NCBI GenBank assembly: GCA_964450715.1
Contig: CAYVFC010000016.1
Location: 1 to 58,677 of the forward strand
Source: an uncultured Sandaracinaceae bacterium
GTDB lineage: Bacteria > Myxococcota_A > Polyangia > Polyangiales > JAFGIB01
Length of the DNA stretch: 58,677 nt
Direction: 5' to 3'
Shown: positions 985-19,809 of the stretch, in pieces
Layout of the letters: each line of letters opens with the position of its first letter
Numbering within the stretch: the first letter of the stretch is position 1
Notes under the pieces: model-generated
Seen by the model: only the letters and a program-made list of their open reading frames with translations
The model's database searches: none
Told to the model about the DNA's origin: nothing
Program-made: the position numbers and the translations under genes

Positions 985-1706
985 CAGAAAAGCCCGAGGA
1001 ACAGGCCCATTCGGTACGCGATAAAAGCGAGCAGCGCCTGCCAGAAAAAGATCAGAATGGTAAATGACCCGTACGTACTAAGCGGCGTCTCGGGCATTAG
1101 ACAACGGAATAGCTGCAGGATTCCTGCTAGCAGGGAAATGCTGAGCAAGAAGACCGAGATGGCCCGCACGGTGCCTACGGAGTTCTCGTCCGTCATAGTT
1201 GCGGACAAAAACCATAGGATGGGGAAAAAGCCGAAGCTGAAGATGGCCGCGACCGACGAAACCAGAATGGCCATAGCCAGACTCTGGGCCAGGCTGATCC
1301 TCACACCCAGATACGCGCTGAACACATGCAGGGAGGAGAAGCATATGGCGACAGATCCGAGGTATAGGGCTGAAATCTGCCAGTAGCGATCCCAGCCGAT
1401 CACTGCGCCGTATGGAACCGCATAGAATAGGCTGGTGGAGAACATCAACGACACCAGAAGGACCAGCTCGCGCTTTTCAGCGACGCTAGTAATCCAACGC
1501 GCCCTCTGGGCCAGAATCACGTCTATAGCTCGATGGGGGCGCAGAAAAGCCGATAGCAACTCTTGGGAGGAATACGGATGAAGTTGACCGGAAGTAGATA
1601 GCAGTTGCGTACGGCTTTCCGGTATCGTTGCAGGCCGGACGTCTGCTTGGCTATCTAGTTGGCTGTTTGAATGGTCTTTAGTCTGATCGCCTTGCTGTTC
1701 ATCCAT
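984..1706 (-). CDS. hypothetical polytopic integral membrane protein
   Basis: 240-aa ORF with a hydrophilic N-terminus followed by about 6 hydrophobic helices. It lies directly downstream of uppS on the same strand. Confidence 0.4.
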   Translation of the reverse strand: MDEQQGDQTKDHSNSQLDSQADVRPATIPESRTQLLSTSGQLHPYSSQELLSAFLRPHRAIDVILAQRARWITSVAEKRELVLLVSLMFSTSLFYAVPYGAVIGWDRYWQISALYLGSVAICFSSLHVFSAYLGVRISLAQSLAMAILVSSVAAIFSFGFFPILWFLSATMTDENSVGTVRAISVFLLSISLLAGILQLFRCLMPETPLSTYGSFTILIFFWQALLAFIAYRMGLFLGLF

Positions 1707-6531: not shown

Positions 6532-7662
6532 TCAATCCGACGGAATCGTCATGACAAACGTCGAGCCGTCGGTGCCGGTGGATCGCAACTCGGCGCGACC
6601 GCCGTGCGATTCGGCGACAGCTTGGACGATGGCCAGGCCTAGGCCGGTACCGCCGTCCGCGTGACGGGTGGTAACGAAGCGCTCGAAAAGGCGGTCCTTG
6701 ACGGCCGGATCGATACCCGAGCCTCTGTCGGTCACTGTGAGTTCGACGGCTCCGGAGCGGGCTTGAGCTGATACCGTTACCTCGGAATTCTCGGGGGAAT
6801 GGTTGATGGCGTTGGCGATGAGGTTCTCGGTCGCTCGCTGCAGCCACTCCTTGTCGCCTCGGACCCAGAGGCCTTTTTCGGCTGAGACGTTCACGGAAAT
6901 GGAGCGCCTGGTGGCCTGTGCGGCGAGTGCGACAACGGCGGCGTGGACGACTTCGGCGAGGTCGACCCGGGCTGGAGGCCCGGAAAGTCCCTGGGCCTCG
7001 AGACGTGCGAGAGAGAGGAGATCCGCGGTGAGCTTTTCGAGCTTGTCAGCCGCCTCGGAGATACGGCGGCCGAACTTACGGGCGGCGTCGGGGTCTTCGC
7101 GGATAGCGTCCTCCAGGACCTCGGCCGCGGCCCTGATGGATGCTACCGGATTCTTGATCTCGTGAGAAAGATCCATGACGAAGCGTTCCATGGCGTGGCG
7201 CTGCTCAAGCTCCCGCCGCATGGACTCGAAAGCGGTAGTGAGCGCCCTTACCTCGCGACCGCGCGGGACGGGCAGTACGGCCTGCCGTTCACCGGCCGCG
7301 ATCCGTTCCGCCGCGCGGGTCAACCGCTCGATGGGCTTGGCCACCGCGCGCCCGATGAAGACTGCGGCAATAGCAGCCGCGCCTGCCAGGATGAAAGCCA
7401 GTAATCCGACCTCGGGTGCTATGTCCGCCAGAAGCTCGGTCACGTTCATAGCCCCCGACAGCGCGCGCGGCGCGTTTTCCAGCACGATCAGCGCGAAGAC
7501 CGCGGAGAGGAGCAGCGTCGTGACCGCCATGGCCAAAAACACCTGCATACGAATAGACACACCGCGCCGCCGCGCGCGTATCAGGCGCGCGGCGGTGGCC
7601 GCCGCGCCGACGAGATAGAGTGCGACGAGCAGTAGCAGAGCCCCCTGCCCCGCGATATTCAT
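6532..7662 (-). CDS. sensor histidine kinase (two TM helices, HAMP, HisKA, HATPase_c)
   Basis: Two hydrophobic helices, an H-box HEIKNP, and N, G1 and G2 boxes (NLIANAINHS, DRGSGI, GGTGLGLAI). Its ATG overlaps the upstream response-regulator stop in an ATGA arrangement. Confidence 0.85.
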   Translation of the reverse strand: MNIAGQGALLLLVALYLVGAAATAARLIRARRRGVSIRMQVFLAMAVTTLLLSAVFALIVLENAPRALSGAMNVTELLADIAPEVGLLAFILAGAAAIAAVFIGRAVAKPIERLTRAAERIAAGERQAVLPVPRGREVRALTTAFESMRRELEQRHAMERFVMDLSHEIKNPVASIRAAAEVLEDAIREDPDAARKFGRRISEAADKLEKLTADLLSLARLEAQGLSGPPARVDLAEVVHAAVVALAAQATRRSISVNVSAEKGLWVRGDKEWLQRATENLIANAINHSPENSEVTVSAQARSGAVELTVTDRGSGIDPAVKDRLFERFVTTRHADGGTGLGLAIVQAVAESHGGRAELRSTGTDGSTFVMTIPSD

Positions 7663-9783: not shown

Positions 9784-10429
9784 GGGAAGCCTCCCATACG
9801 CCGGTACCGCCGGCTTGCGGGCAGCGCCGCCACTGGCAGCGCTGCGGGTTATCCAGAGGGCCCGTTGAGAACGGGCCCGGAAAAGGCGGCCTCGAGAGGC
9901 CGGGCTTCGGCCCTGCCGGGCTTCGATTGCTACGGCTCTGCCCGCGGGGCAAAGCGTTCGCAACGGAGCGCAACAGAACCAGGACCCAGAAACGCGCAGA
10001 CGATTGCGGGTCCGCGTGCAGGGCGCGGCAGCGGTCGCCGCTGCGATGGCCACCGACCGTGGACACGGACGCGAACCGCCCGGGCGTTTACGGGTTTCGC
10101 GGAGCGACAGGCGAACACAAGCGCTCACCCGCGCGCCGGCGAAGTTGAAGCCACGACCCCCTTTGGCCTGGTACAAGGACGGTTAACAGCCGTCTGCAGG
10201 CTTGATAGGCCCGTTACCTGTGCTCTACCCACTGAGCCACATGGATCCCAAGTCCATGGGGAGAGTCGAACTCCCGACACCAGGTGGTTGCTCAACGCTG
10301 CAAAGGTACACGTGCGCAAAACAGGCAGCACGCGCACACGGCAACGTAGAACCGGCAACCGGACGCACGCGCGGTGACTCCAGCGAGACCGCACGGCGCG
10401 GCACCGCGCCGACGCCAGCCATTGAACAG

Positions 10430-10501
10430 TGCTTCCGGGGAGAATCGAACTCCCGTTTCCGGATTGAAAGTCCGGCGTCCTCACCATTGGACGACGGAAG
10501 C
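10430..10501 (-). tRNA. tRNA-Glu (anticodon TTC)
   Basis: Cloverleaf on the minus strand: acceptor GCTTCCG/CGGAAGC, anticodon stem CCGGA/TCCGG with loop CTTTCAA, T-arm GGGAGTTCGATTCTCCC. Confidence 0.7.
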
Positions 10502-10607
10502 GAATCGAACGCTTTGTGAACCGGCCGTTTTTATGGGCTTTTTTGTAATAGTACGAGACCAACAGCTCGCCCTTGACGACCGATCTCTAGGAGATCACCA
10601 TCGAGCT

Positions 10608-11366
10608 ATGTCGGCCGCCTCGAAGATCGAGTGGACGGAAACCACCTGGAATCCAGTACGCGGGTGCTCACGCGTTTCACCTGGATGCCAGACCTGTTAC
10701 GCCGAACGCATGGCACACCGTTTTAGCAGTCCTGGTATGCCTTACGAGCGGCTAACACGATCGTCCGCAAACGGGCCTAGATGGACCGGCCGACTTCGCA
10801 TCGTAGCTGACGCCATTGAAGAACCTCTTCGGTGGAGGAGGCCCCGGCTGGTCTTCGTTAACTCGATGTCCGACCTTTTCCACGAAGGTCTTCGGGATGA
10901 CGTCATAAAAGAAGTTTTCGAGACCATGGAACGCGCGCACTGGCATACGTTTCAAGTACTCACGAAGCGTGCAGACCGCCTAGCTGAGATGGCGCAGGAT
11001 TTGCGTTGGCCGACCAATATTTGGATGGGAGTTAGCGTAGAAACAGCGGACTACCTTTGGCGTGTTGACAAACTCCGAAGTGTACCGGCCGCTATTCGTT
11101 TCGTATCGATGGAACCTCTGCTTGGGCCGCTCCCGTCGCTCTCGCTTAGAAGAATTCATTGGGTAATCGTAGGAGGCGAGTCTGGACCCGGATCACGACC
11201 TATGGAAGAGGTTTGGGTACGAGGTATTCTAGAGCGTTGCCGAAGGGCCTCAGTACCTTTCTTCTTCAAACAGTGGGGAGGCGTTAGAAAAAACCGACTA
11301 GGACGGTGCCTCGACGGCCGTACCTACGACGAAATGCCGGAACCGCTAGAGCCAGTCTGGCAGTAA
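10608..11366 (+). CDS. phage Gp37/Gp68 family protein (DUF5131)
   Basis: N-terminal IEWTETTWNPVRGCSRVSPGCQTCYAE signature. AGGAGA RBS upstream of ATG 10608. The longer ORF start at 10374 overlaps tRNA-Glu and is rejected. Confidence 0.7.
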   Translation: MSAASKIEWTETTWNPVRGCSRVSPGCQTCYAERMAHRFSSPGMPYERLTRSSANGPRWTGRLRIVADAIEEPLRWRRPRLVFVNSMSDLFHEGLRDDVIKEVFETMERAHWHTFQVLTKRADRLAEMAQDLRWPTNIWMGVSVETADYLWRVDKLRSVPAAIRFVSMEPLLGPLPSLSLRRIHWVIVGGESGPGSRPMEEVWVRGILERCRRASVPFFFKQWGGVRKNRLGRCLDGRTYDEMPEPLEPVWQ

Positions 11367-11370
11367 CGCA

Positions 11371-12249
11371 ATGAATCCTGCATCCAAGAACGACTGCCCT
11401 CACTGTGGAACCAGGCAAGAAAACGGCAACTGCCCTGAGCCGCTCGACGATGGGCACGCCGTCCAATGCGTCGGTGGTTGGGCTCAATGGAAGCATCATT
11501 ATCTGAGCCAGTATATCGACGCGACGTGGAGAACCCGCGTAAAATACTTGCCCCCGAACGGTACGGGAGGAGCTGCCTATATCGATCTTTTCGCGGGACC
11601 GGGCCGGGCTCGGATACGTGATACCGGCGAGGTCATTGACGGTAGCCCTCTTATCGCGATGAGCCACGAGAAGGCCCCTTTCTCGAAAATCCTTCTCTGC
11701 GACCTAGAAAGCGACAACGTTACGGCACTGAAGGAACGATCTCGCCGATACGGAGACCGTGCAGAGGTTTTCAGCTTAGACTCTAACGCTGAGACTTCGG
11801 CCATTATCAATGCTATTCCGAACCTAGGACTAAATCTAGCTCTCGTAGATCCATTTCGACCGCGTGATCTGAAGTGGACCACGATCGAGAAGCTGGCAAA
11901 TCTCCAACGAATGGACTTGATTATAAACTTCGCCACAGGATTCATAAGACGCAATCTATTCGATTCTCCTGGATACGATCGCGTAGTTGACGAGATGCTT
12001 CCCTCCGATAGCGCGTGGAGGACTGCCGTTAGATCGACGAAAGAAGTGTCTAGGTTAATCGAATACTTCCGTAACGGATTGATCGATCTCGGATACGACG
12101 AATCTTGTGTTCGTTGCATTCCGGTTACGAATCGAAGAAACGTCGTGCTGTATCATCTGGTATTCGCGTCGAAACGCGATTTAGGTACCAGAATCTGGAA
12201 CAGCATCGCGCGCTCCGACCCGACCGGACAACGAGATTTTGGTTTCTAG
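11371..12249 (+). CDS. three-Cys-motif partner protein TcmP (methyltransferase-like)
   Basis: Starts 4 nt after the Gp37/Gp68 stop. N-terminal CPHCG...NGNCPEP Cys cluster, HWKHHYL, and an IDLFAGPG Rossmann motif I typical of SAM-dependent methyltransferases. Confidence 0.6.
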   Translation: MNPASKNDCPHCGTRQENGNCPEPLDDGHAVQCVGGWAQWKHHYLSQYIDATWRTRVKYLPPNGTGGAAYIDLFAGPGRARIRDTGEVIDGSPLIAMSHEKAPFSKILLCDLESDNVTALKERSRRYGDRAEVFSLDSNAETSAIINAIPNLGLNLALVDPFRPRDLKWTTIEKLANLQRMDLIINFATGFIRRNLFDSPGYDRVVDEMLPSDSAWRTAVRSTKEVSRLIEYFRNGLIDLGYDESCVRCIPVTNRRNVVLYHLVFASKRDLGTRIWNSIARSDPTGQRDFGF

Positions 12250-12283
12250 ATACTCGGGGACCCGCGTCCTTGAACAGAAGTAG

Positions 12284-12356
12284 TGTCCCCGGCGGGAATC
12301 GAACCCGCATCTGCTGGTCGAGAGCCAACCATCCTGAGCCGTTAGACGACGGGGAC
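12284..12356 (-). tRNA. tRNA-Glu (anticodon CTC)
   Basis: GTCCCCGTCGTCTAACGGCTCAGGA... resembles bacterial tRNA-Glu. Anticodon loop CTCTCGA, T-arm GCGGGTTCGATTCCCGC. Confidence 0.7.
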
Positions 12357-12369
12357 GTTGTCGGAGGGG

Positions 12370-12440
12370 TGCGACTGACCGGAATCGAACCGGTTCTTCC
12401 GCCGTGGCGGGGCGGCGTGCGGCCGGAACACCTCAGTCGC
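12370..12440 (-). tRNA. tRNA-Gly (anticodon GCC, C33 non-canonical)
   Basis: Acceptor GCGACTG/CAGTCGC, anticodon stem CCGCC/GGCGG with loop CCGCCAC, T-arm ACCGGTTCGATTCCGGT. Confidence 0.6.
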
Positions 12441-12582
12441 AACGGCGGAGAGCAGAGGAGTCGAACCTCGACGCCGAAGCGCCTGCCGGGTAGCGGCCGG
12501 CCGTGACGCCACCGTCACTGTGCTATCCCTGTTCGCCACTCACCTCGGTGGCGGAAGGTGGAGGAGTCGAACATGACTGTAG

Positions 12583-12632
12583 CCGTGCAAAGCGGAGCGG
12601 ACGCCAGTCCGCGGAGCTGCACGGGTATAGTC
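12583..12632 (-). repeat. conserved structured hairpin motif, copy 1 (core AGCGGAGYGGACGYCAGTCCRCGGAGCTG)
   Basis: Plus-strand sequence ccgtgcaAAGCGGAGCGGACGCCAGTCCGCGGAGCtgcacgg. The outer stem and the inner GCGGAC/GTCCGC stem both pair, with covariation relative to copies 2 and 3. Confidence 0.6.
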
Positions 12633-12741
12633 CTGTCGACGGGTCGGAGCGAAGCGGAGACCCTAGTCAACCCCTACGTCGGAACGTCCCCGGATTTCGA
12701 GACCGGTGTGGCACCGCTGCCACGTCACCTTCCATTCACGG

Positions 12742-12828
12742 GGCGGAAGCCGGAGGTCTCGATCCCCATGCCTACTGGCACGCGCCCGCTTCCAACGGGG
12801 CCCGAGTCCCACTCGGTTCAGCTTCCGC
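12742..12828 (-). tRNA. tRNA-like, Ser-type (anticodon GGA?) with long variable arm and aberrant T-arm
   Basis: Acceptor GCGGAAG/CTTCCGC, candidate anticodon loop TTGGAAG, long variable stem TGCC-AGTA-GGCA. The T-arm is degenerate, so this may be a pseudo-tRNA. Confidence 0.35.
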
Positions 12829-12842
12829 TTTGCGATGTAAGG

Positions 12843-12916
12843 TCGGGATGGTGGGCTTCGAACCCACGGCCTCCTGCTCCCGAAGCAGGCGCGCTCCCAG
12901 ACTGCGCCACATCCCG
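12843..12916 (-). tRNA. tRNA-Pro (anticodon CGG)
   Basis: Acceptor CGGGATG/CATCCCG, D-arm GCGCAGTCTGGGAGCGC, anticodon stem CCTGC/GCAGG with loop TTCGGGA, T-arm GTGGGTTCGAAGCCCAC. Confidence 0.75.
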
Positions 12917-13052
12917 TAAATACTTCTAGCGGCTAGTGCTATAAGATCCCCGGGGGAAGACAGCGGCGTCAGCGCGTCCCTGAATTCTTGACCTGAATTC
13001 GCGACCGCGTCAGACGCACCACGCGTCTGTCTTCACCCCGGGGGAGTCGAAC

Positions 13053-13595
13053 TCAGTTGCGCGGCTCATCCGAGTCCTCCTCCAGCGCCCCGTGCCAGTA
13101 CAACCAGTTGGTCCAGGCCTCGGGGATGGTGCACGCGGGGTCGATCCTGAAGGCGACCACCGGAAGCCATCTGGGCTTTTCCGGCTGCTTCAGAAGCCGC
13201 ATGCCGGCCTGCTCGGGGGTCCGGTGACCCTTGCGCCCGTTGCAGCGGTAGCAGGCCATGACGACATTCTCCCACCTGGTCTTTCCGCCCTGGGAGCGGG
13301 GAACCACGTGGTCGTACGTCAGCTTGCTGAGCGGGGACTTTCTCCCGCAGTATTGGCAGCGAAAACCGTCGCGCGTGGCGACGTTCATCCGCGAGAACTT
13401 CACCCCTCGTCTGCCCCGGATCGCGCGCAACAGGCGAACGACCGCGGGCATCTTGATGGTGAAGGTCACGGAACGGACGTCCTCGTCGTACTCCTCGATA
13501 ACCTCGACCTTGCCGTCGAAGAGCATGAGAACGGCGCGCTGCCAGCTAACGACACGGTGGGGCTGATACCCCTGATCCAGTACGAGCGTTCGCAT
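13053..13595 (-). CDS. HNH endonuclease
   Basis: CQYCG...YDHVVPRSQGG...WENVVMACYRCNGRKG is an HNH motif with a zinc-binding Cys pair. AAGGAGG RBS upstream of ATG 13595. Embedded in the tRNA array. Confidence 0.85.
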   Translation of the reverse strand: MRTLVLDQGYQPHRVVSWQRAVLMLFDGKVEVIEEYDEDVRSVTFTIKMPAVVRLLRAIRGRRGVKFSRMNVATRDGFRCQYCGRKSPLSKLTYDHVVPRSQGGKTRWENVVMACYRCNGRKGHRTPEQAGMRLLKQPEKPRWLPVVAFRIDPACTIPEAWTNWLYWHGALEEDSDEPRN

Positions 13596-13618
13596 GTTGC
13601 ACCTCCTTTTTCTATCTG

Positions 13619-13692
13619 CACTGGAGGGTGCGGACGGCGAGATTCGAACTCGCACTTGCCTGGGCTTGAATCAGGTGCCTCTGCCGATTGGG
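13619..13692 (-). tRNA. tRNA (anticodon ambiguous, CAA or TCA; short variable arm)
   Basis: Acceptor GCGGACG/CGTCCGC, D-arm GCCCAATCGGCAGAGGC, T-arm GCGAGTTCGAATCTCGC. The anticodon stem has an A-C mismatch. Confidence 0.55.
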
Positions 13693-13720
13693 CCACGTCC
13701 GCTCCATGCCGTTCCTGGCG

Positions 13721-13807
13721 CCTAGTCTGGTGCTGGGGACAGGAGTCGAACCTGCACGGCCACTATGGACCACCGGAGTCTGAGTCCGGCGCGTATTCCT
13801 GTTCCGC
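13721..13807 (-). tRNA. tRNA-Leu (anticodon CAG), long variable arm
   Basis: Acceptor GCTGGGG/CCCCAGC, anticodon stem CCGGA/TCCGG with loop CTCAGAC, an 18-nt variable arm, T-arm GCAGGTTCGACTCCTGT. Confidence 0.7.
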
Positions 13808-13819
13808 CACCCCAGCGTC

Positions 13820-13894
13820 CATGCTCGAGTGCCCACGGGAAGATTCGAACCTCCACTGTACGGATTCTTAGTCCGCTGCCTCTGCCGGGTTGGG
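13820..13894 (-). tRNA. tRNA with anticodon AAG (Leu-type anticodon but short variable arm; non-canonical)
   Basis: Acceptor GCCCACG/CGTGGGC, D-arm GCCCAACCCGGCAGAGGC, anticodon stem GCGGA/TCCGT with loop CTAAGAA, T-arm GGAGGTTCGAATCTTCC. Confidence 0.55.
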
Positions 13895-13899
13895 CTACG

Positions 13900-14070
13900 T
13901 GGGCCTGGTGCGAGCGGCCGGAGTCGCACGTGGTCGAAAATGTGCAAAGCGGAGTGGACGTCAGTCCACGGAGCTGCACATTTTCGGACGCGATACGGGT
14001 CGAAGACCCTAGTGCACCGGCACTGTCCCGGGTTTAAATCGAGCGCCTCTGCCGATTGGGCTACGCTCGC
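13900..14070 (-). ncRNA. aberrant 171-nt tRNA-like element with large insertion containing hairpin-motif copy 2; CCA encoded
   Basis: Perfect acceptor pair GCGAGCG...CGCTCGC-A-CCA. The tRNA-like D-arm GCCCAATCGGCAGAGGC is followed by about 100 nt with no canonical anticodon arm, then a T-loop-like TGCGACTCCGGCC. Confidence 0.45.
13937..13990 (-). repeat. conserved structured hairpin motif, copy 2
   Basis: gaaaatgtgcaAAGCGGAGTGGACGTCAGTCCACGGAGCtgcacattttc. It has an 11-bp outer stem and an inner GTGGAC/GTCCAC stem. Confidence 0.6.
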
Positions 14071-14076
14071 ATTGGG

Positions 14077-14149
14077 TACGGGGGGCCGGAGTCGAACCGG
14101 CGACCTCCTGTTTGTAAGACAGGCGCTCTTCCAGTTGAGCTACCCCCGC
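14077..14149 (-). tRNA. tRNA-Val (anticodon TAC)
   Basis: Acceptor GCGGGGG/CCCCCGT, D-arm GCTCAACTGGAAGAGC, anticodon stem CCTGT/ACAGG with loop CTTACAA, T-arm GCCGGTTCGACTCCGGC. Confidence 0.75.
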
Positions 14150-14156
14150 ATCTTGG

Positions 14157-14225
14157 TCCCGCCGAGCGGAATCGAACCGCCACCGTCGCCCTTATGAGAG
14201 GCGCGTCCGACCTTCGGACGGCGGG
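14157..14225 (-). tRNA. tRNA-Met (anticodon CAT), short D-arm, CCA encoded
   Basis: Acceptor CCCGCCG/CGGCGGG followed by ACCA, anticodon loop CTCATAA, T-arm GGCGGTTCGATTCCGCT. 69 nt. Confidence 0.6.
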
Positions 14226-14226
14226 T

Positions 14227-14298
14227 TGCGGGGGCAAGAATCGAACTTGCGGCGCTCCGGCGTATGAAACCGGGCTGGGATACCAGCACCCTCCCCGC
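14227..14298 (-). tRNA. tRNA-Met/Ile2-type (anticodon CAT), second copy
   Basis: Acceptor GCGGGG(A)/(C)CCCCGC, anticodon stem CCGGT/GCCGG with loop TTCATAC, T-arm GCAAGTTCGATTCTTGC. Confidence 0.6.
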
Positions 14299-14310
14299 GG
14301 CAACCCGCGG

Positions 14311-14384
14311 CGTCCCCGGAAGGAGTCGAACCTTCACGAAACCCGGCTTCGGAGACCGGCGCTCTTCCATTGAGCTACGAGGAC
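14311..14384 (-). tRNA. tRNA-Arg (anticodon CCG)
   Basis: Acceptor GTCCTCG/CGGGGAC, D-arm AGCTCAATGGAAGAGC, anticodon loop CTCCGAA, T-arm GAAGGTTCGACTCCTTC. Confidence 0.75.
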
Positions 14385-14409
14385 GAAAAGATACCTGACG
14401 CCTGCGCGG

Positions 14410-14482
14410 CACCCGCGGGGAGACTCGAACTCCCACCCTCCTGGTTCGTAGCCAGGCGCTCGTCCGCTTGAGCTTCGCGGGC
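14410..14482 (-). tRNA. tRNA-Arg (anticodon ACG)
   Basis: Acceptor GCCCGCG/CGCGGGT, D-arm GCTCAAGCGGACGAGC, anticodon stem CCTGG/CCAGG with loop CTACGAA, T-arm GGGAGTTCGAGTCTCCC. Confidence 0.75.
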
Positions 14483-14486
14483 ATGG

Positions 14487-14559
14487 CTCCCCCGACAGGA
14501 TTCGAACCTGCAAAGGCCGGCTTAGAAGACCGGTGCCCGTCCGATCGGGCTTCGGGGGC
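14487..14559 (-). tRNA. tRNA-Arg (anticodon TCT), CCA encoded
   Basis: Anticodon stem CCGGT/GCCGG with loop CTTCTAA, T-arm GCAGGTTCGAATCCTGT, acceptor ...CGGGGGA-G-CCA with a G1-A72 mismatch. Confidence 0.65.
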
Positions 14560-14587
14560 GACTTCCGTTAGGCGTACGTATCGACGG

Positions 14588-14658
14588 AGTGGCGGGAGGG
14601 AATCGAACCCTCGCATACCGGACTTGCAAACCGGTCCCTGCCCATTCGGATCCGCCAC
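14588..14658 (-). tRNA. tRNA-Cys (anticodon GCA)
   Basis: Acceptor GTGGCGG/CCGCCAC, anticodon loop TTGCAAG, T-arm GAGGGTTCGATTCCCTC. Confidence 0.6.
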
Positions 14659-14727
14659 GTAGCGGGCCCTGCCAGGCGGGAGCGTTTCAGGTCACACGGT
14701 CGTTATCCGTTGTACTCCCGCAAGGCA

Positions 14728-14799
14728 TAAGGCCCGGTGCGCCCGGCGGGATTCGAACCCGCTCCACCTGATTGGAAGCCAGGCGTGCTGCCTTGAACA
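14728..14799 (-). tRNA. tRNA-Gly (anticodon TCC)
   Basis: Acceptor GCGTCCG/CGGGCGC, anticodon stem CCTGG/TCAGG with loop CTTCCAA, T-arm GCGGGTTCGAATCCCGC. Confidence 0.7.
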
Positions 14800-14805
14800 C
14801 CTCGG

Positions 14806-14877
14806 ACGCAATTCGTGGAGCCGCGGGGAATCGAACCCCGGTCTTCCGCTTGCAAGGCGGATGCTCTCCCGGTTAAG
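14806..14877 (-). tRNA. tRNA-Ala (anticodon TGC)
   Basis: Acceptor GGGGCCG/CGGCTCC with the G3-U70 Ala identity pair, anticodon stem TCCGC/GCGGA with loop CTTGCAA, T-arm CGGGGTTCGATTCCCCG. Confidence 0.75.
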
Positions 14878-14886
14878 CGACGGCCC

Positions 14887-14958
14887 CTCTGGTCGGTAGG
14901 CCGGGCGCGAGTCGAACGCGCATCGGCCGCTTATAAGGCGACTGCTCTCTCCCTTGAG
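14887..14958 (-). tRNA. tRNA-Ile (anticodon TAT), unusual isoacceptor
   Basis: Acceptor GGGCCGG/CCGGCCT, D-arm GCTCAAGGGAGAGAGC, anticodon stem GTCGC/GCGGC with loop CTTATAA, T-arm GCGCGTTCGACTCGCGC. Confidence 0.6.
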
Positions 14959-14963
14959 CTACC

Positions 14964-15035
14964 GGCCCTTCGGTCCTCCCGGAAGGACTTGAACCTTCAT
15001 TTCCCGGTCATCAGCCGAGCGTCCTGGCCATTGGA
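14964..15035 (-). tRNA. tRNA-Ile (anticodon GAT)
   Basis: Acceptor CCTCCTG/CGGGAGG, anticodon stem CTCGG/CCGGG with loop CTGATGA, T-arm GAAGGTTCAAGTCCTTC. Confidence 0.7.
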
Positions 15036-15039
15036 CGAC

Positions 15040-15114
15040 AGGAGGGCGGGCTGGTCGGACGGACTCGAACCGACTTGCACCAGACTCACATTCTGGGCCC
15101 TCGACCACTTCGGG
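15040..15114 (-). tRNA. tRNA-His (anticodon GTG) with G-1
   Basis: 8-bp acceptor G-CTGGTCG/CGACCAG-C, anticodon stem CCAGA/TCTGG with loop ATGTGAG, T-arm GTCGGTTCGAGTCCGTC. Confidence 0.7.
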
Positions 15115-15159
15115 ATCGACCAGCATAGTCGTTCAGGCAGCGATACATCCCTCGACGGA

Positions 15160-15291
15160 TTCGCCTTGGTGTCACGGACCGGAATCGAACCGTTCGGCCG
15201 TCCCACGTCCGCTGCGCGGCCGTGAGTTTTTTGGACAGCCTCACCTCCTGGGTTTCAACCAGGCGCTCTTACCGTAGTGAGCTACCGTGAC
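15160..15291 (-). tRNA. tRNA-Phe (anticodon GAA) carrying a ~55-nt structured insertion between anticodon stem and T-stem
   Basis: Acceptor GTCACGG/CCGTGAC-A-CC, D-arm GCTCACTACGGTAAGAGC, anticodon stem CCTGG/CCAGG with loop TTGAAAC. A GC-rich insert GGTGAGGCTGTCC-A6-CTCACGGCCGCGCAGCGGACGTGGGACGGCC follows, then T-arm ACGGTTCGATTCCGGT. Confidence 0.6.
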
Positions 15292-15299
15292 GATGACGG

Positions 15300-15370
15300 C
15301 GCCACGTACGGGAATCGAACCCATCTCGACCGGTCGACAACCGGCTCGCATCCCAGATGCGCAACGTGGC
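15300..15370 (-). tRNA. tRNA-Asp (anticodon GTC)
   Basis: Acceptor GCCACGT/ACGTGGC-G, D-arm CGCATCTGGGATGCG, anticodon stem GCCGG/CCGGT with loop TTGTCGA, T-arm ATGGGTTCGATTCCCGT. Confidence 0.75.
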
Positions 15371-15420
15371 TTCATCACCCGCTCCTCCAAGACCCGGCAC
15401 GCCGTGGAGGAATCGACCGC

Positions 15421-15480
15421 CGTTGAAAACGTCCGGAGCGGAGTGGACGTCAGTCCACGGAGCTGGACGTTTTCAACGGT
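15421..15480 (-). repeat. conserved structured hairpin motif, copy 3 (inside a degenerate tRNA-like region, 15371-15555)
   Basis: gttgaaaacgtccGGAGCGGAGTGGACGTCAGTCCACGGAGCTggacgttttcaac, with a 13-bp outer stem. Flanked by a Trp-like anticodon hairpin (CTCCAAA) and a T-arm-like GGCGGTCGATTCCTCC. Confidence 0.6.
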
Positions 15481-15560
15481 GGCGACGGAGCGCGAAGCGC
15501 GGAGTCAACCCCCCGCGGTCGGGTTTGGAGCCCAACCTGCGCCCAGCGCCCGACGTCTAG

Positions 15561-15633
15561 CTCCGGAGGCAGGATTCGAACCTGCGGTTTGCCGGTTAAC
15601 AGCCGGCCGCCTTTCCGCTTGGCTACCCCGGAA
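15561..15633 (-). tRNA. tRNA-Asn (anticodon GTT)
   Basis: Acceptor TCCGGGG/CTCCGGA, D-arm GCCAAGCGGAAAGGC, anticodon stem GCCGG/CCGGC with loop CTGTTAA, T-arm CGCAGGTTCGAATCCTGC. Confidence 0.7.
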
Positions 15634-15714
15634 TAGTGTGCGGCGCCCGGTCGCCACTCCGGGCGCCCGCACGAAAGCCTTCTCGATTGTCAAAGAACAC
15701 GCTAGCTATGCCGG

Positions 15715-15785
15715 CTCGGGAGGAGGGATTCGAACCCCCGTCGACTTATCCAGAGTCAGTTGTCCTTCCGTTGGACGACTCCCGA
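15715..15785 (-). tRNA. non-canonical tRNA (anticodon uncertain, possibly GGA)
   Basis: Acceptor TCGGGAG/CTCCCGA, D-arm GTCCAACGGAAGGAC, T-arm GGGGGTTCGAATCCCTC. The anticodon arm is irregular (TGACT-CTGGATA-AGTCG). Confidence 0.45.
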
Positions 15786-15880
15786 ATGCTTCAAAGATCG
15801 CTCGAACAAATTTTCAAGAATCTAAACTCCGTTTTCAGGGTGCACTTCGCCGTCCGCCTTCAACGCGGTTGAAGGCGCAG

Positions 15881-15953
15881 TGGATCCGGTGGGCGTCGAA
15901 CCCACACGCGTCCGGTTAAGAGCCGGGTGCTCTGCCTGTTGAGCTACGGATCC
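15881..15953 (-). tRNA. tRNA-Lys (anticodon CTT)
   Basis: Acceptor GGATCCG/CGGATCC, D-arm GCTCAACAGGCAGAGC, anticodon loop CTCTTAA, T-arm GTGGGTTCGACGCCCAC. Confidence 0.7.
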
Positions 15954-15957
15954 GTTG

Positions 15958-16030
15958 TGGGGCCGGTGGGAATCGAACCCACAATCGTCCGGTTAAAAGC
16001 CGGCTGCTCTTCCTGTTGAGCTACGACCCC
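15958..16030 (-). tRNA. tRNA-Lys (anticodon TTT)
   Basis: Acceptor GGGGTCG/CGGCCCC, D-arm GCTCAACAGGAAGAGC, anticodon loop CTTTTAA, T-arm GTGGGTTCGATTCCCAC. Confidence 0.7.
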
Positions 16031-16096
16031 GTTGGGCGCAGCTCTCGTTTTTGTATGTGTAACTTCAATAACATAGCCTCCCTCCGTGTGACCTGG

Positions 16097-16179
16097 TGGG
16101 GCCGGCAGGATTCGAACCTGCATAGCGACCAGCGCGCCCGGTTTACAGCCGAGTTGGGATTCCTGCTCCCCTCGACCCC
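16097..16179 (-). tRNA. tRNA-Tyr (anticodon GTA), long variable arm, CCA encoded
   Basis: Acceptor GGGGTCG/CGGCCCC-A-CCA, D-stem GGGA/TCCC, anticodon stem CTCGG/CCGGG with loop CTGTAAA, 15-nt variable arm, T-arm GCAGGTTCGAATCCTGC. Confidence 0.7.
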
Positions 16180-17854: not shown

Positions 17855-18661
17855 GTGTCGACCGCATACCGGAGTCTCATGAAAGCGAGCCAAATAGACG
17901 AGGTCTGGTCGATGCTCGACCGCTCGGCGCTGGCGGATGTAGCCAGAACCGGCCCAGAGGCCATATTCGCGACCATCAGTGGTGCGCATCTCTACGGGTT
18001 CGCCTCGAATAACAGTGACGTGGATCTGCGCGGCGCCTTCATGCTTTCGGCTCGGGAAATGCTCGGGCTTCGTGCGGTAGAAGAGACGGTATCGGTCAGC
18101 GACCAGCGTGCCGGTATGGATCTAGACTGGGTTGCGCATGACATCCGGAAGTTTGCGCGCATGATGACGAAGCACAACGGCTACGTGCTGGAGCAGCTGT
18201 TCTCTCCGTTGGTAGTCATCACCACGCCTGAACACGACGAGCTACGCGAGCTCGGAAGGGGCTGCGTAACGCGCCCGACCGTCCGGCATTACCTGGGTTT
18301 TGCCCAGGGCCGTCGTAAACGATTGAAAGAGCCCGATCCGACCGTCAAGCATCTGCTCTATGCGTACCGGGTCTACCTGACCGGGATACACGCGATGGGT
18401 ACCGGTGAGATCGAAGCGAACATTCGGAGCCTCAACGAGCGCTTTCGCCTAGAGCAGATCGACGAGTTGGTCGCCCGGAAAACGGAGGGAACGGAGAAGA
18501 TGCTCCTCGCCGCCGGCGAAGTCGAACAGCACGAGCGGTTCTTCGACGAGCTCGAGAGCAGGCTCAACGAAGCGCACGAGAGGAGCCGGTTGCCCGAGGA
18601 AGCCACGACCGCGCGCGACCTGGACGATTTCGTCGTCCGGATCCGGCTGAAAAGGGCGTAG
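17855..18661 (+). CDS. nucleotidyltransferase-fold protein (PF10127/RlaP-like)
   Basis: ISGAHLYGFASNNSDVDLRGAF matches the GS-x9-13-D-x-D(E) pol-beta-type NTase signature of PF10127-type predicted nucleotidyltransferases. Confidence 0.6.
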   Translation: MSTAYRSLMKASQIDEVWSMLDRSALADVARTGPEAIFATISGAHLYGFASNNSDVDLRGAFMLSAREMLGLRAVEETVSVSDQRAGMDLDWVAHDIRKFARMMTKHNGYVLEQLFSPLVVITTPEHDELRELGRGCVTRPTVRHYLGFAQGRRKRLKEPDPTVKHLLYAYRVYLTGIHAMGTGEIEANIRSLNERFRLEQIDELVARKTEGTEKMLLAAGEVEQHERFFDELESRLNEAHERSRLPEEATTARDLDDFVVRIRLKRA

Positions 18662-18663
18662 CG

Positions 18664-19809
18664 ATGACCGGATTTCCGCTACGCCGTCATACGATCTTCG
18701 TGGCGCTGGCGGGTAGCCATGCGCACGGAACGGCTCGCAGTGGATCCGACGTGGACCTACGCGGCGTGTGCGTCGCGCCGCTTCGCATCCGGGCATCCTT
18801 CCGCGAGAGCTTCGAGCAGTACGAGGGAGAGATGGATCAGGAGCTACGGGAGGCGGTGTTCGCCGGGCTGCGAGGTCATCCCACCGCGTCACAGGGACTG
18901 TCGGACAAGATCGACTGCACGATCTTCGACGTGGCCAAGTTCGTGGGGCTGTGCGCGAACGCCAATCCGAATGCGCTGGAGATTCTCTACGCGGATAGGC
19001 GCGACTGGGTATTTAAGACATCAGCCTGGGAGCGCCTGTATGCCGAGCGCCGTCGATTTCTATCGCTGAAGGTCCAACAGACATACGCGGGCTATGCCAT
19101 GGCTCAGCTCAAGAGAATCAAGAGCCACCGGTCCTGGCTTCTGAATCCTCCGGCGAAGAAGCCAACGAGGACGGACTTCGGCCTACCCGAGCAGGGCACG
19201 CTCAACCAGGACGATCGCAATCGCATCGAGCAGGGGATCGCCGAGAAGATCAGTGGATGGGGAATCGAGACACTCGAAATGCCCAAGGCGACCCGCATCG
19301 CTCTCAACGAGCGCCTCGAAGCTTTCCGGAGCGACGTGTTGGCCGCAGAGGCCGAGGAGGTCGCAGACAGGCTCCGCGAAACCGCTGCCCGCAATCTAGG
19401 GATATCGAAACAGCTCATGGAAGCGCTGGAAGGCGAGCGAAAATACAGGGGCGCGCTCAAGCGCTGGGACTCCTACCAGACCTGGAAGCAGCAGCGGAAT
19501 CCGGATAGAGCTAAACTCGAAGCCCAGTTTGGCTACGACACCAAACATGGGATGCACCTGTTACGGCTCATGCGCACGGGACTCGAAATTCTTCGGACCG
19601 GCGAACTTCAGGTTCGCCGCCCGGATGCAGCGGAACTCAGTGCCATCCGCGATGGAGCCATGACTTACGGTGAGCTACTGGCTGAGGCCGAACATTTGCG
19701 GGAAGGAATGGATACTGCGGCCGGAAATGCGGACCTGCCTGCAGACGTCGACTACGAAGCTCTGGACGAGTTGCTGTACACGCTGATTCGTGACGAGGGT
19801 TGCTGCTAA
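18664..19809 (+). CDS. nucleotidyltransferase-fold protein (PF10127/RlaP-like) with C-terminal helical extension
   Basis: ALAGSHAHGTARSGSDVDLRGV carries the same NTase signature. It starts 3 nt after the previous stop, and the two proteins are paralogues. Confidence 0.6.
   Translation: MTGFPLRRHTIFVALAGSHAHGTARSGSDVDLRGVCVAPLRIRASFRESFEQYEGEMDQELREAVFAGLRGHPTASQGLSDKIDCTIFDVAKFVGLCANANPNALEILYADRRDWVFKTSAWERLYAERRRFLSLKVQQTYAGYAMAQLKRIKSHRSWLLNPPAKKPTRTDFGLPEQGTLNQDDRNRIEQGIAEKISGWGIETLEMPKATRIALNERLEAFRSDVLAAEAEEVADRLRETAARNLGISKQLMEALEGERKYRGALKRWDSYQTWKQQRNPDRAKLEAQFGYDTKHGMHLLRLMRTGLEILRTGELQVRRPDAAELSAIRDGAMTYGELLAEAEHLREGMDTAAGNADLPADVDYEALDELLYTLIRDEGCC

Follow-up and report, generated by a model that had tools for sequence, protein, structure and literature searches.

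What is the conserved hairpin that interrupts three tRNA genes in a stretch of myxobacterial DNA, and is it an intron, a remnant of something larger, or a mobile element in its own right? The stretch, referred to as the window, is the 58,677-nt contig CAYVFC010000016.1 (assembly GCA_964450715.1) of an uncultured Sandaracinaceae bacterium, in which an initial annotation had noted three plus-strand copies of a covarying hairpin motif embedded in aberrant tRNA-like genes. The 29-nt core of the motif, AGCGGAG-YGGAC-GYCA-GTCCR-CGGAGCTG, indeed occurs exactly three times in the window, always on the plus strand (12591-12619, 13948-13976, and 15437-15465), and is absent from 100 shuffled sequences even when three mismatches are allowed. 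A covariance model search of the 58.7-kb window returned these three copies only, at 73 to 76 bits on the minus strand; the same loci score 15 to 20 bits on the plus strand, and any other locus reaches at most 15.4 bits. We favor the view, with a probability of roughly 0.6, that the copies belong to a family of small protein-less mobile DNAs that insert, in one orientation, between nucleotides 55 and 56 of the T-loop in tRNA and transfer-messenger RNA (tmRNA) genes, a family that would be restricted to Myxococcota (Polyangia-like lineages) and previously undescribed. The inserts are probably not tRNA introns.

On the minus strand, each copy is followed by the 3′ half of a T-loop and the 3′ strand of an acceptor stem, as the initial annotation had recognized; the insertion site that it proposed, the junction of the variable loop and the T-stem, proved wrong. 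After removal of 99, 88, and 91 nt, ARAGORN calls tRNA-Ser(cga), tRNA-Leu(taa), and tRNA-Trp(cca), respectively, with intact T-stems and 7-nt T-loops, which places the inserts inside the T-loop, between nucleotides 55 and 56 (with an ambiguity of 2 to 3 nt). Copy 1 (12570 to 12668; 99 nt, with boundaries ambiguous by a shared TT) interrupts tRNA-Ser(CGA) (12549 to 12733), whose 5′ part lies at 12669-12733 and whose 3′ part (CGACTCC... plus GCCA) lies at 12549-12569. Copy 2 (13927 to 14014; 88 nt) splits a tRNA-Leu(UAA) gene with a short variable region into a 5′ part at 14015-14070 and a 3′ part at 13906-13926; the latter ends in an encoded CCA, as had been reported, but the gene spans 13906 to 14070 and measures 165 nt, not the 171 nt assigned to it. 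Copy 3 (15416 to 15506; 91 nt) sits in a tRNA-Trp(CCA) gene with a minimal D-arm (15396 to 15556; 5′ part 15507-15556, 3′ part 15396-15415). All three genes and their inserts are read on the minus strand, and the split genes are overlooked by tRNA finders: ARAGORN missed all three, and the Rfam tRNA model reported none.

A nearby tRNA-Phe(gaa) gene (15167-15291, minus strand; Rfam tRNA score, 43.8 bits) had been thought to carry a different structured insert at the same position. The insert is real and different, with 52 nt (15195-15246), two hairpins, and a sequence unrelated to the motif, but it occupies the variable region and leaves the T-arm intact.

Along the tRNA strand, each insert consists of two parts: a short, GC-rich hairpin (hp1) precedes the long motif hairpin (hp2), which is built from an outer stem, a 2- to 3-nt bulge, 2 bp of GC, a symmetric 3×3 internal loop, a 6-bp stem, and a 3- to 4-nt terminal loop. 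The hp2 and hp1 hairpins lie at 12575-12631 and 12641-12663 in copy 1 (covariance model score, 75.2 bits), at 13932-13988 and 13997-14009 in copy 2 (73.2 bits), and at 15421-15477 and 15484-15506 in copy 3 (75.7 bits). The outer stems differ among the copies, with 7, 11, and 13 or more bp, and all of them fold as originally described; equally sound were the descriptions of the compensatory inner-stem change, an exchange of C-G and U-A between copies, and of the invariant internal-loop bases. The internal loop of hp2 reads UCC/UCC on the tRNA strand and GGA/GGA on the opposite strand. In copies 1 and 3, GGA/GGA loops are present in both hairpins on the same strand; hp1 of copy 1, for example, reads GGGTC-GGA-GCGAAGC-GGA-GACCC on the plus strand, which is also the strand on which the structure of its hp2 looks selected.

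The motif is not confined to the window. A scan of one genome per species for the exact core found 53 loci, 44 of them in metagenome-assembled genomes (MAGs) of Myxococcota (Sandaracinaceae, Polyangiales, and “Myxococcales”), and a scan of metagenomes added 93 loci; individual loci are given below as L numbers. Several Myxococcota genomes hold 5 to 7 copies each, and at least 118 distinct full-length copies are present in Myxococcota MAGs and metagenomes. True copies score 45 to 82 bits with the covariance model, compared to 17 to 33 bits for nine matches in other phyla, which agree in the core only. In a seed alignment of 25 copies, 13 of the 22 pairs show double changes, 90% of the positions pair (30 to 42% when the partners are slid), and none of 500 shuffles reaches the observed covariation score. 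The sequence C[GA]AN[TC]C[CT] follows the core at a distance of 20 to 26 nt (mode, 21 to 22) in 64 of 107 distinct copies, versus 3 of 107 in a control window. The long imperfect hairpin is what stays constant among the elements, and it is set 20 to 26 nt away from the point of insertion. The elements measure ∼75 to 250 nt and encode no protein, and searches of the literature and of Rfam 15 found nothing that describes them; Rfam applied to 18 related loci returned only tRNA and tmRNA.

Some loci depart from this pattern in detail. In L025, two inverted copies, 1271-1326 (minus) and 1427-1482 (plus), lie ∼100 nt apart, and the internal loop of one reads UUC/UUC rather than UCC/UCC, both sides having changed in concert. 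At positions 51-100 of L077, the hairpin that contains the exact core is a different one and precedes a tRNA-like 3′ end.

Do these elements move? Two accessory tRNA arrays of a single Polyangiales MAG, L010 and L045, provide a direct comparison. The tRNA-Leu(caa) gene contains a 99-nt element in L010 and is intact in the paralogous gene of L045; this is a clean filled/empty polymorphism. The filled site, GAGGGTT[GACTAGG...CCATGTT]CGACTCC, shows no duplication beyond GTT, with 2 to 3 nt of ambiguity. The inserted element is ∼90% identical to copy 1 of the window, which occupies a different tRNA, Ser(CGA), and the same element type is found alike in Ser(cga), Leu(caa), Leu(taa), Trp, and arrays of the hexamer CCCGTT. 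In these long tandem hexamer arrays, copies of 97 to 98 nt occur several per array (L022, L039, L028, and L059), and single insertions follow GTT^C-like sites (L026 and L053). A 95-nt copy lies antisense within the transposase open reading frame (ORF) of an IS91-family insertion sequence, where it breaks the frame; its removal restores both the frame and the alignment length. This insertion is present in all of the at least six IS copies of one MAG (L047, ∼6779-6878; also L001, L016, L049, and L052); IS91 copies with the insert are either non-autonomous or have the insert somehow removed. Thus, among the explanations put forward in the initial annotation, small hairpin mobile elements that target the T-arm hold up best, given a dispersed family, a fixed spacing to the T-loop, a filled/empty pair, and insertions outside tRNA genes.

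Two familiar kinds of element were considered as the source of this mobility and rejected. IS91 has a GTTC target that resembles the T-loop, but the copy in IS91 is an ORF-breaking insertion and the junction is GTT^C, not GTTC^. A miniature inverted-repeat transposable element derived from a DDE transposon is excluded by the lack of terminal inverted repeats and of a target duplication, and by stems that covary instead of being conserved.

The T-loop copies all have one orientation relative to the tRNA. An inverted hairpin does occur in L010 (1640-1760); its host is a decayed Ser(cga)-like pseudogene, from which the variable arm and the 3′ half of the anticodon arm have disappeared. In a further array, the metagenomic locus L100, a tRNA-Leu and a tRNA-Asp gene are interrupted, and the left junction in tRNA-Asp carries a foreign T-loop half, CGAGTCC, a finding that weakens a model in which the repeated 3′ part of the tRNA is a target-site duplication.

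At chromosomal tRNA genes (Val, Arg, Leu, Asn, Glu, and Met) and at five tmRNA genes, the arrangement is different from that in the window. Where the flanking gene is identifiable on the contig, an intact gene ends 70 to 190 nt upstream of the core, and a second copy of the gene sequence that starts at C56 follows the element, typically with a length of 17 to 22 nt and up to ∼48 nt (110 nt, by eye, in L048); the downstream repeat is degenerate in L036. That a restored gene accompanies the element argues that interruption of chromosomal tRNA and tmRNA genes is not tolerated. The window copies carry only a stump (GACT or CACT) of a replacement 3′ half, and the three array tRNAs are truly split and most likely inactivated, a loss that would be tolerable because the array is accessory. 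We regard the window tRNAs as probably nonfunctional on the grounds of the restored genes beside chromosomal copies, a fold that lies on the wrong strand for an intron, and the decayed example in L010.

This layout recalls larger elements. Genomic islands and prophages that use tRNA and tmRNA genes cross over in the T-loop, restore the gene with element-borne 3′ sequence, leave a displaced 3′ fragment downstream, and can form tandem arrays; all four features recur in the present family, in which tandem stacks of elements were observed. The use of the tmRNA gene as an island site is also on record (PMC11915505). The copies could accordingly be miniature remnants or satellites of tRNA-integrating islands, moved by a tyrosine integrase acting on double-stranded DNA with a T-loop crossover, with the hairpin as an accessory feature of an attP arm. 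Besides the order of gene, element, and displaced 3′ half and the stacking, this reading gains from some tRNA-fMet 3′ remnants that have no intact gene within 6 kb, as would be seen at the far end of a large island. On the other hand, the block of identity begins exactly at C56, with neither a duplicated 7-nt overlap nor inverted core-type repeats at the junctions, and the window copies do not restore the gene. The direct repeat of the tRNA 3′ part is there, but the elements are only 75 to 250 nt long and no integrase lies near the copies; moreover, their conserved hairpin has features specific for a single strand, and its stems covary rather than keep a fixed protein-binding sequence. An origin from islands therefore seems unlikely to us.

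Which strand carries the selected fold? On the tRNA-sense strand, A·C mismatches exceed G·U pairs by 95 to 31 (67 to 29 when one doubtful pair is left out), and the antisense strand has the corresponding G·T-type pairs. In ∼105 of 118 copies, the terminal loop is of the form U..C on the sense strand, which makes it GNA or GNNA on the opposite one. The sequence GCTTCGC, which is d(GCGAAGC) on the antisense strand, occurs in the upstream hairpin (hp1) of 18 copies versus 2 in the control, and T.C triloop hairpins are found upstream in 34 cases versus 4. The GGA/GGA internal loop of the antisense strand is a tandem G·A arrangement. Mini-hairpins of the types d(GCGNAGC) and d(GCGNNAGC), with their sheared G·A pair, reach an extraordinary stability as DNA, which exceeds that of the RNA versions (PMC13037366). 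Energy models likewise predict greater stability for the antisense strand: among 110 copies, it comes out ahead in 100 under DNA parameters and in 103 under RNA parameters, and the same holds for each of the three window copies, in which the antisense strand is the plus strand. From these related sequences and energy models, we infer that the fold under selection is that of the antisense strand, with single-stranded DNA as its simplest form. The covariation on which the initial annotation had built thus stands, but its reading as the mark of a selected RNA calls for qualification, since the strand that folds better is the one opposite to the tRNAs.

An RNA-based function would have to accommodate this strand preference. 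Conserved unpaired bases and covarying stems, together with the greater stability of the antisense strand under RNA parameters too, are what might be expected of a functional structured RNA or protein-binding module, either an extension of the tRNA T-loop or an antisense small RNA, that has spread by duplication. Such a module is hard to reconcile with insertion polymorphism between paralogues, with unrelated contexts that include an IS91 ORF and hexamer repeats, and with the fact that neither a promoter nor a partner protein was identified. In addition, the T-loop and D-loop form the elbow of the tRNA, which an insert between nucleotides 55 and 56 would destroy. We hold this explanation to be highly improbable.

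We judge just as harshly a retroelement-like route, in which a host reverse transcriptase would turn a joint transcript of tRNA and element into antisense single-stranded DNA, similar to the multicopy single-stranded DNA of retrons, as an integration intermediate. It would fit a folded strand that is antisense to transcription of the host tRNA, and duplicated 3′ blocks that often stop at or just after the tRNA 3′ end, or after a terminator, positions that have meaning at the RNA level. However, no reverse transcriptase is adjacent to any copy, the duplicated blocks have no added CCA, and the L010 insertion is clean, with no poly-tail or variable target duplication.

How, then, would a T-loop be chosen? 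Upstream of hp2 lies a tetranucleotide (N-T-C-G, usually followed by GCTCC) that is complementary to T-loop nucleotides 56 to 59; on the folded strand, every T-loop copy is located 3′ of (N)TCG, the sequence at the target that complements those nucleotides. The putative guide follows its target: T-loops with CGAC are matched by GTCG in 15 of 16 copies, and those with CGAG by CTCG in 9 of 10, GTCG being present in just 2 of these 10. The same dependence is seen inside a single element subtype, where the guide position is C in L096, L138, and L011, T in L035 (a T·G wobble), and G in copies at CGAC sites. In copy 1 of the window, GTCGAC (12633-12638, minus strand) includes GTCG (12635-12638), which complements the T-loop CGAC, and the full GTCGAC also pairs with the adjacent GT. 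For fMet-type copies, the apparent complementarity is confounded by the T-stem itself. Because the guide changes with the T-loop, the base of the hairpin includes target-derived bases.

These observations can be assembled into a tentative mechanism. A non-autonomous element would insert at T-loops through a folded single-strand hairpin, and base-pairing with T-loop nucleotides 56 to 59 would select the target. An enzyme supplied in trans would recognize the folded hairpin and would cut and join at a set distance from this hairpin; it could be a single-strand transposase of the HUH type or else a tyrosine recombinase that acts on folded DNA, as at integron attC sites. Excision between two T-loop-like junctions would produce a circle that starts at C56. 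Such excision would account for the replacement tRNA 3′ halves at essential genes, with their order of intact gene, element, and displaced old 3′ half, and, elsewhere, for foreign or eroded stumps at the left end (GACT, CGAGTCC, and CGGCTCC) and for tandem stacking.

Both candidate enzymes have well-studied relatives, with which the elements agree in part. Imperfect hairpins define the ends of IS200/IS605 elements, which lack terminal inverted repeats and target duplication and use an internal tetranucleotide to pair with the target (PMC3201880, PMC5934647, and PMC6006769). Like these elements and their protein-less derivatives, the PATEs, the Myxococcota elements lack target duplication and terminal inverted repeats (inspection showed no inverted repetition between their ends, GACTAGG... 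and ...CCATGTT), and their ends are defined by hairpins, not by sequence. They likewise insert in one orientation beside a specific short sequence, with a tetranucleotide pairing that would choose the target, and in the window subtype (copies 1 and 3) the GGA/GGA loop recurs in both hairpins of the same strand. They differ in that the guide is opposite the flank with which it pairs, that most subfamilies have one conserved hairpin, that a variable stretch of 3′ sequence from the host tRNA accompanies elements at essential genes, and that no TnpA is linked. To our knowledge, T-loop targeting has not been described for the IS200/IS605 family.

REP sequences and RAYT (TnpA-REP) offer a further parallel, since REPs, too, are lineage-specific hairpins of high copy number that combine covarying stems with a tetranucleotide guide next to them (PMC6006769). 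Unlike the present elements, REPs are extragenic, usually have GTAG on the 5′ side, and are not site specific for tRNA T-loops. A tblastn search of the 8-kb loci for IS200 TnpA and RAYT gave a single match, an IS200-type tnpA gene in L077 (1849-2277; 42% identical to TnpA of Salmonella IS200) that is 1.7 kb from the core with an unrelated gene between them, and no RAYT homologue.

Integron attC sites consist of a single imperfect hairpin that is recognized in its single-stranded, folded form, the strand involved being antisense to the cargo, and their units stack in tandem. The elements resemble them in having one imperfect hairpin at the end of a unit of variable content, an antisense folded strand, tandem stacking, and a crossover at the hairpin base, so that the target supplies the final bases of the site. 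In contrast to attC, they have, by inspection, no RYYYAAC/GTTRRRY boxes, with GTCGAC/GT(T)CGAC forming the base helix instead, and they show a symmetric 3×3 GGA/GGA loop in place of extrahelical G/T bases. Their attachment site is a tRNA T-loop and not attI, and the cargo is at most a tRNA 3′ half. No integron integrase was found by Pfam among the 30 larger ORFs of the window, and none recurs at the loci of the relatives. Membership in either the IS200/IS605 or the integron attC family is not established, owing to a guide on the wrong side for IS608, mostly a single conserved hairpin, no attC boxes, and no linked TnpA or IntI.

The most different answer to the opening question is that the inserts are a new kind of bacterial tRNA intron, transcribed and then removed, for example, by an endonuclease that cuts at the hairpin bases and an RtcB-type ligase, which would leave the array tRNAs functional. 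The orientation of the insert relative to the tRNA is fixed, and group I introns interrupt the T-loops of tmRNA in other bacteria, so that an insert in the T stem-loop of a tRNA-like domain has a bacterial precedent. Yet the structural signatures favor the antisense strand; wherever the flanking gene can be identified, the element at a chromosomal tRNA or tmRNA gene lies next to an intact, restored copy of that gene; copies are found in repeats that do not look transcribed, antisense in an ORF, and inverted in a decayed pseudo-tRNA. An Rfam scan of the inserts at E values of ≤10 yielded no credible family, ribozyme and intron families included, and gathering thresholds gave only tRNA. Group I introns, whether in tmRNA T-loops or in tRNA anticodon loops, are rejected because no Rfam match was obtained and the inserts, at 88 to 99 nt, are too small for a group I core, group I introns being typically at least 200 nt; the antisense folded strand and the copies outside RNA genes also set the elements apart. 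Hand analysis of the folds at the junctions found no bulge-helix-bulge (3-nt bulge, 4-bp helix, and 3-nt bulge), and we rejected a protein-spliced intron of the archaeal or eukaryal kind. Hammerhead-, hatchet-, and twister-type ribozymes were discarded for lack of a match and for a geometry that does not fit. The proposal of a noncanonical intron or processing element in the initial annotation is thus not supported, with the antisense fold, the restored genes, and the negative ribozyme and intron comparison all pointing away from it, and we consider a new bacterial tRNA intron quite unlikely.

Several observations nonetheless speak for such introns and weigh against insertion of an inactivating mobile DNA. 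The interrupted tRNAs retain complete, foldable exons with full cloverleaf potential, and they supply anticodons that the array otherwise misses (Trp, Leu-UAA, and Ser-CGA). In three diverged arrays of ∼80% identity, the tRNA-Ser(cga) gene is interrupted, and its D and variable arms show compensatory changes. Two genes for RlaP, an “RNA repair pathway” nucleotidyltransferase, flank the array. Together, these four points keep RNA-level removal of the insert in consideration, although we assign it only a small chance. A specific form of it, true T-loop tRNA introns removed by a protein endonuclease and ligase (e.g., of the RtcB type, or involving the flanking RlaP), with functional array tRNAs and the intron itself mobile, is very unlikely in our estimate. 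Other difficulties concern the proposed mechanism. The geometry is unlike that of IS608, in that the folded strand has the target on the 5′ side of the hairpin and the guide on the 3′ side, and only the window-type subfamily has hairpins at both ends, other subtypes keeping hp2 alone. The strand argument consists of counts from related sequences and nearest-neighbor energies, and an antisense RNA would give the same strand asymmetry. Finally, an enzyme candidate was found neither near the copies nor in the window, where comparison of the 30 larger ORFs with Pfam revealed no recombinase or transposase.

Proteins encoded beside the copies do not point to a partner either. Clustering of 1,229 ORFs from 44 loci, within 2.5 kb of the copies, gave no recurrent neighbor except one IS91. 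A recognition element for the nearby HNH nuclease or the Gp37/TcmP pair, another suggestion of the initial annotation, is thus unsupported, although the HNH gene is conserved in the arrays. The HNH protein was also rejected as the mobilizing nuclease: it is conserved in the arrays and absent from the other loci.

The window is a segment of a bacterial chromosome with ∼60% G+C that encodes a histidine kinase, a response regulator, ankyrin and MFS proteins, and ketosynthases. A phage origin was rejected in view of these chromosomal genes and of zero matches in 50,697 phage records or viral contigs. The three copies are hosted by an accessory array of ∼30 tRNA genes (10429 to 16179, minus strand), which comprises 25 tRNAs called by ARAGORN, further ones found only by Rfam or by hand, and the HNH gene; its initiator tRNA has the bacterial C1×A72 mismatch. 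L010 and L045 are syntenic to this array, with gene order and the HNH gene in common. The HNH_5 endonuclease gene (13053-13655, minus strand) is a conserved member of this type of array, with ∼80% nucleotide identity in L010 and L045 and 68% in L100.

Other features of the array and its flanks may be listed briefly. Among the genes missed by ARAGORN are a Ser(gga)-like tRNA gene with a 9-bp acceptor helix (12740-12828, minus strand) and a Cys(gca) gene detected by Rfam only (14588-14658, minus strand; 39.5 bits). Noncanonical members include Leu(caa) (13627-13702) and Leu(taa) (13906-14070), both on the minus strand and with short variable regions (76 to 77 nt), and the tRNA-Trp at 15396-15556 (minus strand), which has a 3-nt D-loop. 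Directly after the HNH stop codon, a T-loop-like GTTCGACTCC is followed by a long inverted repeat of ∼105 nt (12948-13052); this repeat is absent from the syntenic arrays L010 and L045 and may be another insertion. One flank of the array holds a DUF5131/Gp37-like gene and an unknown ORF (10374-12249, plus strand), and the two RlaP genes on the other flank are paralogous (17855-19809, plus strand).

If our preferred explanation is correct, these elements would form a class of mobile DNAs of very small size that targets the most conserved sequence in biology, the tRNA T-loop. They would provide a third natural case, beside IS200/IS605 and integron attC, of recombination directed by DNA secondary structure, with a 4-nt pairing that would be reprogrammable, and would point to a so far unseen enzyme in Myxococcota. 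Should they prove to be introns instead, bacteria would gain their first example of protein-spliced tRNA introns. For genome annotation, displaced tRNA 3′ halves and tandem stacks can pass for the ends of islands. Accessory tRNA arrays have been discussed as anti-defense or backup tRNA sets (PMC12803027); in such arrays, insertion of an element would be a route to the knockout of individual tRNA members.

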